Of a stretch of 64,000 nucleotides of DNA, positions 47,234 to 50,405 are shown one piece after another. Position 1 is the stretch's first letter. Every line of letters starts with the position of its first letter. The position numbers were made by a program, and so were the translations under genes. The notes below the pieces were generated by a model. The model was given only the letters and a program-made list of their open reading frames with translations, made no database searches and was not told the origin of the DNA. The DNA is from a virus (Duplodnaviria; Heunggongvirae; Uroviricota; Caudoviricetes), in IMG/VR virus record IMGVR_UViG_2519899835_000003; one strand, 5' to 3'.

Positions 47234-47575
47234 AATGACCTCGCGTTTCGATAATTTTTACCTCGCCACCGTCAGGTGCTAATCATCGTGGTGGCGAACT
47301 GTGCGGGGTTAGCACTACCGGTCGAAACATCCGGCGAGCCTTTCGGCTCCCCCACACAGCCCGCCATAAATCGCGAATGTGACTGTGCTTAGCGCATAAA
47401 AAAACCGCCAGCGCGGTTATGCACCGTTTCGATATCCGGGGTGCTAATCCCGACGCCAGGTTTTGCTGGCGCGTGAGGAATATAGCCCCGAACACGCGAC
47501 GTTGTCAAACTGATGGCATTGCAGATCCCTACGCAATGTAACACTATGTGTTATACATTAATAACGGAACAAAAA

Positions 47576-47946
47576 ATGCGCATTTTTAAAAACGCCTGGT
47601 TTGAGCGATTTGCACGCAAAACAAAATATCCGACCAATCACTGCGCGAAATTGTTAAACAGGCTGATAACGGGCTTATCTCAGCAAACCTGGGTAACGGC
47701 GTTATCAAGCAACGTCTGCCACGAGTCGGTGGCGGCAAATCTGGCGGTTATCGCACAATCATTTTCTATCGCGTCGGCACAAGGGCCTTTTTCGTATATG
47801 CATACGCAAAAAATGAACGTGAAAATATAACCGCTACTGCGGAAAGTGCATTTCGGAAGGCGGCTCCTCACGTACTCAATCTAACAGATGAACAACTGGC
47901 ACAACTGATTCTACAGGGTCAGTTTACGGAGGTACCCAATGAGTAA
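47576..47946 (+). pseudogene. HigB/RelE-family type II toxin, interrupted by a 1-nt frameshift in an A-run near 47,618-47,626
   Basis: Frame 1 gives MRIFKNAWFERFARKTKY... then unrelated sequence; the adjacent frame gives ...QSLREIVKQADNGLISANLGNGVIKQRLPRVGGGKSGGYRTIIFYRVGTRAFFVYAYAKNEREN...EVPNE, ending in ATGAGTAA overlap with the antitoxin start. Confidence 0.55.
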
Positions 47947-48256
47947 AAATTACCGCAGTGATGCGCTTGCATCCGTACATGAAATGATGGAATCGCTTCA
48001 TGATATCGGCGCAGTAACGAAACAGACTATGCGAGAATTCGATGAAACTTGTCTCCAGCCAGCGCCGGTAATGTCTCCGGAAAGGATCCGTGCACTGCGC
48101 GAACGAGAGCATCTGTCTCAACCTGTTTTTGCCAGATACCTCAACGTCAGTAAAAACCTGATATCAGACTGGGAACGTGGTGTAAAACGGCCGGGAGGTG
48201 CCGCTCTTCGCCTTCTTTCAGTCGTAGAGAAAAACGGAATCCAGGTAATATCATGA
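47939..48256 (+). CDS. HTH XRE-family antitoxin (HigA-like)
   Basis: 105 aa with C-terminal HTH (LSQPVFARYLNVSKNLISDWERGVKRP); start overlaps the toxin stop. Confidence 0.65.
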   Translation: MSKNYRSDALASVHEMMESLHDIGAVTKQTMREFDETCLQPAPVMSPERIRALREREHLSQPVFARYLNVSKNLISDWERGVKRPGGAALRLLSVVEKNGIQVIS

Positions 48257-48269
48257 TACTCCAATACAA

Positions 48270-48292
48270 CAAAACCCGCCGAAGCGGGTTTT
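48270..48292. terminator. Bidirectional hairpin terminator between convergent genes (approximate)
   Basis: AAAACCCGC-CGAA-GCGGGTTTT with A run before and T run after. Confidence 0.45.
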
Positions 48293-48306
48293 CATTAGAA
48301 GCACCT

Positions 48307-48792
48307 TTAGTTTTGCTGTTCTATTTTAAGCTTGATAGTTTCATACAAAACAATAGTTGCGCCTGTTTTACATAATTCCCGGCTGTCATACGCACGAGAC
48401 CAATAACACAACCAGTTCTCGAGATCTTCTCGAGTATAGGTTTTGCAGGCCAGTCCCTCTGCCATTTCCACGATTTCATCGCCTGGTGCTGTTAACTCAT
48501 AGCCATTCAACAACAAGAAGACATAACCAGCCATCATAGCTGTTCGTTTGTTTGCATTAGCAAATGGATGATTCTGAATCAGACTTTCAATCAATACTGA
48601 TGCCAGTACAAACATGTCATTAGTCTGTTCATACCATCGAACCATGCTGGGACGAGACTGAGAAGAACTTAAATTATCAACACTCAGCACACTAACAGGT
48701 TCATCTGGTGTTTGAAGCTCAATTAAAAGGCGATTAATTTCGGTAAGATCATCAAACGAAAGGTAGTGCACTCCTTCAACAATCTCAGCCAT
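48307..48792 (-). CDS. Doc (death-on-curing)/Fic-family toxin
   Basis: HPFANANKRTAMMAGYVFLLLNGY matches the Doc motif H-x-F-x-(D/N)-A-N-K-R. Confidence 0.6.
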   Translation of the reverse strand: MAEIVEGVHYLSFDDLTEINRLLIELQTPDEPVSVLSVDNLSSSQSRPSMVRWYEQTNDMFVLASVLIESLIQNHPFANANKRTAMMAGYVFLLLNGYELTAPGDEIVEMAEGLACKTYTREDLENWLCYWSRAYDSRELCKTGATIVLYETIKLKIEQQN

Positions 48793-48810
48793 AGAGCACA
48801 ATACCCATCA

Positions 48811-48990
48811 TTACACTTTTGAAAGTTCTTCCATTGCCTTCTCGTAACGAGAAAAACCGAAATCGAAAGCATTTTTCACCTGCTCACGATGAGTGCAATT
48901 TTCATCGATAGCCGGGCGCGGAGCTGCCACAACGCTTTTATCGCGAGGGGGAATAGTCAATCGCGGGTGTTTTTTTAGTGCGTAGCTCAT
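48811..48990 (-). CDS. Putative cognate antitoxin of the Doc-family toxin
   Basis: 59-aa ORF immediately upstream on the same strand with a 6-nt gap; no family motif recognised, call by genetic context. Confidence 0.35.
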   Translation of the reverse strand: MSYALKKHPRLTIPPRDKSVVAAPRPAIDENCTHREQVKNAFDFGFSRYEKAMEELSKV

Positions 48991-49199
48991 TGGGTGTACC
49001 CTTACTTCTCCGTCCTGTTCTTTAACAAAAATCAAGTCAATACAAAATTAGTCAGGCTAATGTTGTTAGCATAGCCTAATACCAATCGTATTCACAACCA
49101 CAGTAAGTGAAAAAACCCGCCGAAGCGGGTTAAGTGCGGGTGCGTTGAGGATGCCTGACACATCAGAGGTGGCGAGGGATTTCTCCCTCGCCGGGTCTC

Positions 49200-49412
49200 T
49201 TACTCCTCAGGTTCGTAAGCTGTGAAGACAGCAACCTCCGTCTGACCGGTTCGGATTCGTACCTCGCATAGGTCTTTCCTCGTTACCAGTGCCGTCACTA
49301 CGACGGTAATACAGATGACGATCAGGGCGACTAACATCGCCTTTTGCTGCTTCATAGCCTGCTTCTCCTTGCCTTTCGGCGCGTAAGAGGCTAACCTACA
49401 TGTGTCTAGCAT
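49200..49412 (-). CDS. hok: mok/hok type I toxin locus (Hok toxin = 49200..49355, in-frame Mok extension to 49412)
   Basis: MKQQKAMLVALIVICITVVVTALVTRKDLCEVRIRTGQTEVAVFTAYEPEE is a canonical Hok/Gef; upstream in-frame MLDTCRLASYAPKGKEKQA mirrors mokC. Hairpin plus T run downstream near 49,112-49,132. Confidence 0.8.
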   Translation of the reverse strand: MLDTCRLASYAPKGKEKQAMKQQKAMLVALIVICITVVVTALVTRKDLCEVRIRTGQTEVAVFTAYEPEE

Positions 49413-49600
49413 GAAATTGGCCTCAGATTAATGTTAGGCGTCTTGCAGGACGCGTAATGTTAACTGGGGTTTTTCTCTGTCTGCCTTACGGTGGCATGCC
49501 CGAGGCAGACAGCCTCAAGCACCCGCAGCAATTCTACTTAACTCTCGCTTTACCGCAAACCGTTTTTACCCGATATGGGAATTCCCATATCGTAATGAAT

Positions 49601-49705
49601 TCAGTTCCCTAGTCGATCCATCAAAAACACAACCAGGCAGTAAACGCCCACAACAGCAATAACAGCCAGCGCACCTTCCATTGCCAGTGATATATCATCC
49701 GACAT
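49601..49705 (-). CDS. Candidate small hydrophobic peptide gene (34 aa), not in ORF track
   Basis: ATG with AAGGAGGG 7 nt upstream; MSDDISLAMEGALAVIAVVGVYCLVVFLMDRLGN, one predicted TM helix. Confidence 0.3.
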   Translation of the reverse strand: MSDDISLAMEGALAVIAVVGVYCLVVFLMDRLGN

Positions 49706-49740
49706 ATTCCCTCCTTTGGTGTTAATCCCGGCGAACGTTT

Positions 49741-49824
49741 TTACCCCCACCGACAAATAACATATACTAAAAAAGTGATAGCCATAGCAACGCCTGTAAT
49801 TGCAAATGCTTCAGGCCAGTTCAT
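49741..49824 (-). CDS. Candidate small hydrophobic peptide gene (27 aa), not in ORF track
   Basis: ATG overlaps the stop of the upstream gene (ATGA) with AGGAGG upstream; MNWPEAFAITGVAMAITFLVYVICRWG. Confidence 0.3.
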   Translation of the reverse strand: MNWPEAFAITGVAMAITFLVYVICRWG

Positions 49825-50405
49825 TGGCGCACCTCCTGCGGCGGTTCTGGTAGCGGCATCCAGTCGGTTACATTGCGGCTCTGTGTTTCGAAAAATTCAT
49901 CACCATCACGGACTACATCAAAAAACTCACCGTCTCGATATTGCGCATAAAGAACGAATGCGCCATCACATAAAATAATTACGTGCTGACCGTCATCCGG
50001 CATTCGCTCACTACAGCTTATCCAACCATCCAGAGTTACCGGATGGTTGGTTGACGTTTCCGAGATTTCCCGAAAATTATTGGTTGACGAACCCTTCTTT
50101 TCCCGAAAGTTTCCAGCCTGAAGCATGGCGGCGCTGTCTGGCGGGGCAGCATATAGCGGCACGTATATTTCCGGTTCCTTATCAGCACCGGGTTGCTCTT
50201 CCAGTGAGAATGTCTTTCCGGTAAATCGATTCATATAAAGCACGGGCTCTGCTTCCAGCGAAGCCTGAGCAACAAGGGCCAGTGCTAAATCCAACTCAAT
50301 TGCCTCGAGAGAATTTTTGAATGCTGTCTGTTTTACTGCAAATTTCATCGCCTTTACATTTTCACTAACATGACTGATTAACTGCTCTTTTGTAAAAGTG
50401 GTCAT
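49821..50405 (-). CDS. DUF551-domain prophage protein
   Basis: Start set at MTTFTKEQ after the conserved junction RBS; C-terminus ...DWMPLPEPPQEVRQ paralogous to 6137..6667. Confidence 0.5.
   Translation of the reverse strand: MTTFTKEQLISHVSENVKAMKFAVKQTAFKNSLEAIELDLALALVAQASLEAEPVLYMNRFTGKTFSLEEQPGADKEPEIYVPLYAAPPDSAAMLQAGNFREKKGSSTNNFREISETSTNHPVTLDGWISCSERMPDDGQHVIILCDGAFVLYAQYRDGEFFDVVRDGDEFFETQSRNVTDWMPLPEPPQEVRQ

Follow-up and report, generated by a model that had tools for sequence, protein, structure and literature searches.

Two small conserved genes upstream of a canonical hok/mok/sok module in an Escherichia coli lambdoid prophage

We investigated the region upstream of a hok toxin gene in a 64,000-nucleotide stretch of viral DNA (Caudoviricetes; IMG/VR record IMGVR_UViG_2519899835_000003), hereafter the window, which is a lambdoid prophage of Escherichia coli. 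Two very short open reading frames (ORFs) of 27 and 34 amino acids (aa), here called ORF27 and ORF34, lie between a DUF551-domain gene and the type I toxin-antitoxin (TA) module hok/mok/sok, and a perfect palindrome separates ORF34 from the hok promoter. The mini-ORFs, mok and hok are all read on the minus strand, at the coordinates that an earlier note on this DNA had given (Table 1). Both mini-ORFs are conserved in related phages and prophages, and ORF34 has been reported as translated.

Conservation and distribution of ORF27 and ORF34

The start codon of ORF27 and the TGA that ends the DUF551 gene overlap in the sequence ATGA, and a GGAGG Shine-Dalgarno motif lies 7 nucleotides (nt) upstream, within the last codons of the DUF551 coding sequence. 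We identified homologues of ORF27 in at least 92 GenBank phage records by tblastn, and in at least 532 confirmed IMG/VR stretches by a pattern scan. The family is recognised by the signature MxWP[ED]AF...Y.ICRWG (consensus MxWPEAFAxVGVAMAxAFxVYSICRWG), with M1, P4, A6, G11 and W26 invariant and pairwise amino acid identity falling to about 52%. Among the loci that we fetched there are 29 distinct DNA versions, all of them intact (29/29) with a Shine-Dalgarno-like motif 5-16 nt upstream, and in every version the ATG overlaps the preceding stop codon as ATGA or, in a few copies, abuts it.

The genes that precede ORF27 have at least six unrelated C-termini (...LPEPPQEVxQ of DUF551, ...GLISVEDVLR, ...IEQKVNQ of 933W L0139, ...ATQGENQ, ...MLKKKGMNQ and ...AVWRLEVR). 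What follows ORF27 varies likewise: ORF34, the hok promoter without any gene between, an unrelated gene whose product begins MFALIQRG..., P1-like genes and others. ORF27 represents a mobile family of tiny genes that follow a variety of 'ea'/DUF551-type genes at their 3' ends. Selection on the family was assessed by Nei-Gojobori counts, which gave a dN/dS of 0.24 in frame (pN 0.16; pS 0.48, near saturation), compared with 0.80 and 1.8 in the remaining two sense frames, and third codon positions are variable at 23 of 26 sites, against 15 for first and 13 for second positions. ORF27 is, on this comparative evidence, a genuine and conserved coding sequence.

The phages that carry ORF27 are lambdoid and Shiga toxin (Stx) phages, P1-like phages, and one phage classified in Vequintavirinae. 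The homologues beyond the lambdoid phages are those of Av-05 (Vequintavirinae; L013, positions 801-884) and of the P1-like plasmid prophages SJ46 and 813R1 (L010 and L016), each ATGA-coupled to its upstream gene and each without an annotated coding sequence (CDS). A genome-wide species scan placed ORF27 in Escherichia and Shigella only, plus a few tiny, probably contaminant contigs from other taxa; SJ46 comes from Salmonella. A local tblastn search of the K-12 prophages Qin, Rac and DLP12, with e14 and other cryptic prophages outside its scope, found no homologue (noise at E > 0.1).

Roughly twenty annotated records were inspected, and in none is ORF27 annotated as a CDS of its own; in each, the end of the preceding gene reaches 4 nt (sometimes 1 nt) into it. 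Prodigal, a common gene caller, has a minimum gene length of 90 nt, and ORF27 is below that at 84 nt. An exact lookup of ORF27 and two homologues in a 15-billion-protein collection gave no match, and a full-text literature search for the peptide strings and the accession gave none either. The supplements of 'The Cryptic Bacterial Microproteome' contain neither ORF27 nor ORF34. The ORF27 family appears to be undescribed and unannotated, and to be a further example of the familiar small phage membrane proteins.

ORF34 starts 35 nt past ORF27, behind AAAGGAGGGAAT, with a strong Shine-Dalgarno motif of its own (AAGGAGG). Its protein (WP_001278450.1) was found on about a thousand contigs, and its DNA is present in 748 of 5,426 complete E. 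coli genomes, with O157 genomes carrying the locus in multiple copies (median 3 places per genome). A full phmmer search of 1.84 billion representatives found no relatives beyond its own E. coli prophage family; the query of the word-indexed protein search was the 51-aa TTG-extended frame.

We identified 17 distinct DNA versions of ORF34, which fall into two subtypes and lie nearly always directly upstream of hok. Subtype 1 (34 aa, MSDD...) starts with ATG, and subtype 2 (29 aa) with GTG behind AGGAGG (MLVLKCALAIAAVMAIYCLAVVLMDRLSD). The second subtype is carried by phages Tritos, mEp460_ev081 and HannyBb and by the IMG/VR locus L087, in which it is without annotation or has only opposite-strand calls over it. 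The subtypes share about 52% amino acid and 67% DNA identity and the motif ALA..AV...YCL..VLMDRL, and each retains a Shine-Dalgarno motif, a start codon and its place before hok, with about 245 nt (subtype 1) or 191-211 nt (subtype 2) between the ORF34 stop codon and the hok ATG. Inside subtype 1, dN/dS is 0.20 in frame, compared with 0.78 and 2.37 in the other two frames.

ORF34 is identical to the C-terminal 34 residues of XECs145, a 'novel gene' of E. coli O157:H7 Sakai (Hücker et al. 2017, PLoS One 12:e0184119, PMC5597208). For XECs145 that study gives, in LB (lysogeny broth), 79 reads per kilobase per million (RPKM) in the transcriptome and 346 in the translatome, with a ribosome coverage value of 4.35 and coverage of 0.99. 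The corresponding values are 121, 150, 1.14 and 0.84 in brain heart infusion (BHI), and 73, 1.1, 0.01 and 0.37 under BHI stress. The authors predict an inner-membrane protein with one transmembrane helix, and their classifier gives the verdict 'real'; they assign no function and do not remark on the adjacency to hok (PMC5597208). As called there, XECs145 has 54 codons (162 nt, with a 20-codon N-extension) and is without a Shine-Dalgarno motif, whereas conservation and the AAGGAGG motif indicate that the internal ATG, giving 34 aa, is the start of ORF34. The shortest 'novel gene' in the rows of its S2 Table that were examined is 93 nt long, so that ORF27, at 84 nt, is smaller (PMC5597208). ORF34 thus was known earlier, being annotated and published as translated; newly described here are its true start, the two subtypes and the constant place that it takes ahead of hok. 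Its substitution pattern likewise identifies it as a genuine coding sequence.

The earlier note had described two mini-ORFs with strong Shine-Dalgarno sequences, each a single predicted transmembrane helix, and had proposed conservation in related prophages as a check. Both frames proved to be conserved: many relatives, though diverged, keep them open and show purifying selection, and there are Shine-Dalgarno motifs and, for ORF34, ribosome profiling (RIBOseq). The outcome that the note had named as refuting, a lack of any translation signal and of conservation, was thus not observed. Each peptide has a single strongly hydrophobic 17-residue stretch, with a best Kyte-Doolittle mean of 2.34 in ORF27 and 2.95 in ORF34. 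Thus, these parts of the note stand.

Table 1. Features of the locus, with positions in the window
Feature	Position	Strand	Basis
ORF27, 27-aa single-helix peptide gene without annotation, MNWPEAFAITGVAMAITFLVYVICRWG	49741..49824	-	conservation, dN/dS, Shine-Dalgarno motif
ORF34, 34-aa single-helix peptide gene, MSDDISLAMEGALAVIAVVGVYCLVVFLMDRLGN	49601..49705	-	RefSeq WP_001278450.1 'hypothetical protein'
Perfect 22-bp palindrome, CGATATGGGAATTCCCATATCG	49571..49592	.	between ORF34 and hok promoter
11-nt direct repeat GGGTAAAAACG, copy 1, across ORF27 stop codon	49735..49745	-	read from sequence
11-nt direct repeat GGGTAAAAACG, copy 2, just past palindrome	49562..49572	-	sequence; alignment with 933W
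hok promoter: -35 TTTGCG, 17-nt spacer, -10 TAGAAT	49531..49559	-	read from sequence
hok mRNA leader with Sok target and mok start	49350..49524	-	Rfam RF01794, 110.3 bits, E 3.8e-25
Sok antisense RNA	49404..49474	+	mapped from annotated sokW of 933W, gap-free alignment
mok (70 codons/70 aa), frame and stop codon common with hok	49200..49412	-	PHROG 251 'MokW-like host killing', 5e-32
hok toxin gene (51 aa, HokD/HokW type)	49200..49355	-	Pfam PF01848, 1.4e-23
hok mRNA 3' end: fold-back (fbi) element and intrinsic terminator	49114..49143	-	inverted-repeat search and terminator scan
DUF551-domain gene	49821..50405	-	Pfam PF04448, 1.1e-20; PGAP WP_000206792.1 in FORC_069 chromosome (100% identical)

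The palindrome, the direct repeats and the mosaic upstream of hok

A perfect palindrome between the mini-ORFs and mok had been reported in the earlier note, and we confirmed it at 22 bp, longer than stated there. The sequence is unique in the window, and 100 shuffles gave 0 matches even with 3 mismatches allowed. As RNA it corresponds to a 9-bp hairpin with a 4-nt loop, and the surrounding fold has a z of -3.1. We rejected the palindrome as an intrinsic terminator, there being no T- or U-run after it on either strand. We also rejected it as a conserved structure or site: in relatives one arm is altered (GGGCATTCCC, GGGAATTTCC, GGGGATTCCC) or has lost 1 nt without compensation in the other, and the palindrome, present in PPompW prophages, is missing from the Tritos-type (distant ORF34-hok) loci. 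Thus, with no covariation and with its absence from the distant loci, no function is supported; it may be a scar left by recombination at the edge of the module, an element that stabilises the 3' end of ORF34 mRNA, or a binding site for a protein.

The two copies of the direct repeat GGGTAAAAACG flank a 173-bp segment that contains ORF34 and the palindrome. In loci of the 933W type, the ORF27 stop codon and repeat lead directly into the hok promoter (...CGCTGGAGATAAAAACGGTTTGCGGGAAAAGGAGAGTTAAGTAGAAT), and the repeat pair in the window, set against this single junction, indicates that what separates the two arrangements is either an insertion or the loss of sequence between short direct repeats. 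Other combinations were also identified: 933W has ORF27 and hok with no ORF34, Tritos has ORF34 and hok with no ORF27, and PPompW has hok alone. Upstream of the hok module the sequence is a mosaic in all four arrangements, whereas the -10 of the hok promoter and all sequence downstream show almost no variation across the window, 933W, Tritos and PPompW, indicating that hok needs neither mini-ORF. In the PPompW prophages (PPompW_132418, L009, positions 649-1700), a paa/adfO adhesin moron lies directly upstream of hok, and its right end cuts into ORF34, of which the last two codons remain, followed by the palindrome and hok.

The two mini-ORFs differ in how closely they accompany hok. For roughly half of the ORF27 versions, no hok lies within 700 nt. 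For ORF34, hok lies downstream in about 97% of the fetched loci, the exceptions being L005 (E. coli STEC299, positions 1501-1900) and L069, which keep ORF34 and an imperfect palindrome and have an opposite-strand IbrB-like/PAPS-reductase pair in place of the hok module.

The rarity of ORF34 without hok hints at a linkage, for which common descent could also account. ORF34, perhaps with ORF27, may be functionally tied to hok, either as a membrane partner that modulates Hok or as an insulating upstream ORF, whose translation termination would act with the palindrome hairpin to stop operon read-through that gives untimely hok mRNA. Besides the high rate of co-occurrence, such a tie is favoured by the finding that the ORF34 subtypes, whose DNA has diverged to about 67% identity, each keep a constant short spacing to the hok promoter in differing upstream contexts, and by the recurrence in L087 of the trio of ORF27, ORF34-like ORF and hok with the other ORF34 subtype. 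It is opposed by the functioning of plasmid R1 and chromosomal hok loci without ORF34. Adjacency in close relatives is moreover expected from common descent alone, ORF34 occurs without hok in L005 and L069, and the palindrome is absent from the Tritos type and uncompensated in its variants. The hokW gene of Sp5/933W also works without ORF34 (PMC8621323). We regard a functional tie to hok as unlikely.

A more elaborate form of this idea, which we hold to be very improbable, is a three-peptide membrane module of ORF27, ORF34 and Hok, in which the microproteins would bind Hok or its membrane target and tune killing. This would layer a protein-level modulator over the RNA antitoxin and, if true, could connect expression of the early operon with the phage release that Hok is reported to assist in Sp5. 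In a variant of it, the two peptides would be fused by a -1 ribosomal slip. The ORF27 stop codon sits in TGGGGGTAA (49741-49750), a G GGG G run in which the five Gs are found in 126/126 fetched loci; a slip at the stop codon, for which TGGGGGTAAAAAC is the candidate region, would give a 74-aa ORF27-ORF34 fusion with two helices, and one extra G in the run likewise opens the ORF34 frame to give a 74-aa fusion. ORF27-ORF34 fusions exist as rare database proteins (P0008 and P0009), which could represent sequencing error, natural variation or frameshifting.

Toxins, non-coding DNA or accessory membrane microproteins

The earlier note had suggested that the mini-ORFs could be further type I toxins. 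They would then be extra type I, or similar membrane-depolarising, toxins restrained by unrecognised RNA antitoxins. They are indeed short, hydrophobic, single-helix peptides (27 and 34 aa), and adjoin a bona fide type I toxin inside a cluster of TA modules. In contrast, we could not find the antisense signal expected of such genes: promoter-like sites on the plus strand number 3, compared with 2.0 +/- 1.4 in shuffles, and no plus-strand terminator was found, both being consensus scans and therefore weak tests, and there is no Rfam match across 49600-49830. ORF27 is without an untranslated leader of its own, being ATGA-coupled to at least six different upstream genes, and its start overlaps the upstream gene, so that a structured 5' leader able to silence its own translation, as type I toxin mRNAs typically have, could not be accommodated. 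In healthy, uninduced Sakai the ORF34 locus is heavily ribosome-occupied (value 4.35 and coverage 0.99 in LB; PMC5597208) and counts as one of the more highly translated small ORFs, whereas type I toxins are typically kept tightly silent at the level of translation. Neither ORF27 nor ORF34 behaves as an independent, normally silenced transcription unit. We found no sequence similarity of either peptide to Hok or to PADLOC and Pfam toxin models, and no homology between ORF34, Hok and ORF27. The suggestion of further type I toxins is thus not upheld, and we consider it highly unlikely.

A different objection is that the ORFs are not translated to any purpose, and that their DNA is kept for non-coding reasons (as promoter-upstream sequence, recombination linker or RNA structure) or through the recent kinship of the prophages. 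Identity exceeds 87% for most copies of ORF34, which are restricted to E. coli, and the segment folds better than its shuffles (z -3.1). Two decayed copies of ORF27 were also identified, one in POCJ13, with W3 changed to TAG, and one, frameshifted, in a pseudogene-rich prophage of STEC299 (L005); these broken copies are single isolates or lie within the pseudogene-rich prophage. The divergence of the ORF27 family argues against such an explanation, since homologues with about 52% amino acid identity and a pS of 0.48 retain start, stop, length class and Shine-Dalgarno motif in 29/29 versions. Substitutions fall mostly at third codon positions, dN/dS is lowest in the proposed frames, and ribosome footprints cover 99% of the ORF34 locus in the published Sakai data (PMC5597208). 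We think it rather improbable that the ORFs are kept as non-coding DNA.

The mini-peptides are, in our view, likely to be non-toxic accessory membrane microproteins, and we are much less confident of any specific target for either of them. On this interpretation, a canonical hok/mok/sok module is preceded by two independent microprotein genes of the rightward early (nin-region) operon of the prophage. The parts are independent in that ORF27, ORF34 and hok each occur in combinations without the others. ORF27 is probably made by termination-reinitiation from the ribosomes of the upstream gene, as suggested by the ATG overlapping the upstream stop codon and by the GGAGG embedded in the last codons of that gene, while ORF34 would be translated from its own strong Shine-Dalgarno motif.

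Each peptide probably spans the inner membrane as one helix (N-terminus out, C-terminus in), a topology suggested by its acidic N-tail, its hydrophobic core, which has about 18 residues, and an arginine at or close to the C-terminus. In ORF27 the acidic residue is E5 and the arginine R25, and the N-tail of ORF34 (MSDD...E) has a net charge of about -3 and resembles that of small YidC-inserted proteins such as Pf3 coat. The microproteins would target another membrane protein, for instance as modulators of one from the host or the phage, and would not be autonomous toxins. They may be small membrane regulators, which was the other suggestion of the earlier note.

Several observations weigh against this interpretation or the evidence for it. 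Profile scans with both peptides and 13 ORF27 family members matched no Pfam, PHROGs, NCBIfam or PADLOC family; matches to PTR2, OadG_rel_small, SecE and Cmr5 were rejected as sub-threshold hydrophobic noise. The antisense frame over ORF27 that has common wobble positions also has a low dN/dS (0.32), as expected from the shared wobble positions; owing to the variety of upstream genes, neither a start nor a stop is conserved in that frame. Between the ORF34 subtypes, dN/dS is 0.35 in frame, compared with 0.40 and 1.6, leaving two of the frames barely apart. The RIBOseq value for XECs145 spans the 162-nt extended ORF, which includes the 3' end of ORF27, and its reads may be shared among copies, since the ORF34 locus is multi-copy in O157. 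Finally, a promoter scan found no minus-strand promoter able to explain the expression of ORF34 in a lysogen.

The hok/mok/sok module, its setting and known systems

The hok and mok genes, which the earlier note had called canonical, belong to a canonical and intact type I TA module that is already known and holds no novelty. The Hok protein scores 82.6 bits against Pfam HOK_GEF (PF01848; cutoff 22), and is 94% identical to K-12 HokD and 86% identical to HokW of phage 933W. The mRNA 5' end lies near 49524, where the Rfam sok/hok-leader model begins, and the mok ATG falls under the mapped Sok RNA. A Sok promoter (TTGCCT-17-TAACCT) was identified at 49369-49397 on the plus strand, and the 3' end of Sok has a hairpin followed by GGGGUUUUU, a U-run (fold -31.8 kcal/mol, z -5.8). 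The fbi element GCACCCGCA at 49135-49143 pairs with the hok mRNA 5' end at 49519-49527, 375 nt apart and with 9/9 positions complementary (tac/fbi), and an intrinsic terminator follows at 49114-49131. We rejected a sub-threshold isrK-like Rfam match at 49110-49191 (31 bits, gathering score 50), which covers the hok 3' hairpins and terminator and probably reflects generic hairpin-terminator architecture. The pair HokW/SokW, with its 86% identical toxin, is experimentally a functional TA pair that aids the release of Sp5 (PMC8621323).

Over a 751-nt region of the locus, identity is 100% with the chromosomes of strain FORC_069 and its relatives and 99.9% with O104:H4 strains. The rightward early operon of FORC_069 has the gene order cII, replication genes, DUF1627, DUF977 and DUF551, followed by ORF27 (without annotation), the 105-nt 'hypothetical protein' ORF34 (WP_001278450.1) and hokD; then come a small ORF with a Doc-family toxin, an opposite-strand RelE/HTH pair, and finally ORF6N, ninB, ninE ... 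rusA, ninH and Q. In the nin region of the window (47939-49530) we identified three adjoining TA-type modules, of which hok/sok is one. The second consists of a small ORF (about 48856-49035) and a Doc/Fic toxin (48307-48801; Pfam Fic 3e-11), and the third of a RelE/ParE-family toxin with an HTH partner (HTH gene 47939-48256, plus strand). We additionally identified Rfam matches to C4 antisense RNA (47287-47371, 75 bits), isrK (47398-47472, 74 bits) and the c4 a1/b1 target element (47433-47485). These elements (47287-47485) lie directly upstream of an ORF6N/antirepressor-type gene, and constitute a P1/P7-style C4-ant immunity element in a lambdoid prophage.

As matters stand, this is an incremental gene-finding result and describes no new kind of system. 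ORF27 is a clean case of a conserved phage gene overlooked by annotation pipelines: it is under purifying selection and occurs in the genomes of hundreds of coliphages, Stx-converting and other. Its annotation would close a recurrent 'gap' beside DUF551/Ea-type genes and hokW in the Stx prophages of enterohaemorrhagic E. coli. ORF27 and ORF34 adjoin a TA system reported to affect Stx-phage release, and knock-outs of 'hokW-sokW' or of nearby intergenic sequence could hit them unknowingly, so that the main use of these results lies in annotation and in work that manipulates the hokW regions of Stx phages. A new phage-host interaction would follow if Hok or a host membrane protein proved to be modulated by either peptide.

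Compared with known systems, the TA module of the window resembles both hokD (relF) of the K-12 Qin prophage and hokW/sokW/mokW of the Stx phages 933W and Sp5, with nothing essential differing. K-12 hokD has relBE upstream; the window copy, in contrast, retains the full leader, mok and sok, and the upstream neighbours of 933W hokW differ from those in the window, which are ORF34 and the palindrome. The mini-ORFs share with TisB, IbsC, ShoB, LdrD, DinQ and ZorO their short, hydrophobic, helical peptides. Unlike these toxins, they have no long structured leader and no cognate antisense or small RNA gene that we could find, their translation appears coupled or efficient, and ribosome occupancy is high in unstressed cells (ORF34).

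A likeness in size (<50 aa), single helix and operon-encoded arrangement is to AcrZ, MgtS, MgrB and KdpF, modulators of larger membrane proteins, and the small phage membrane proteins T4 Imm and lambda Kil are also comparable. Polar residues in all of these, as in the mini-peptides, are few and lie at the ends, with no sequence similarity between ORF27 or ORF34 and any of them. The obligatory ATGA coupling of ORF27 to changing upstream genes is unusual among microproteins of the AcrZ, MgtS, MgrB and KdpF type.

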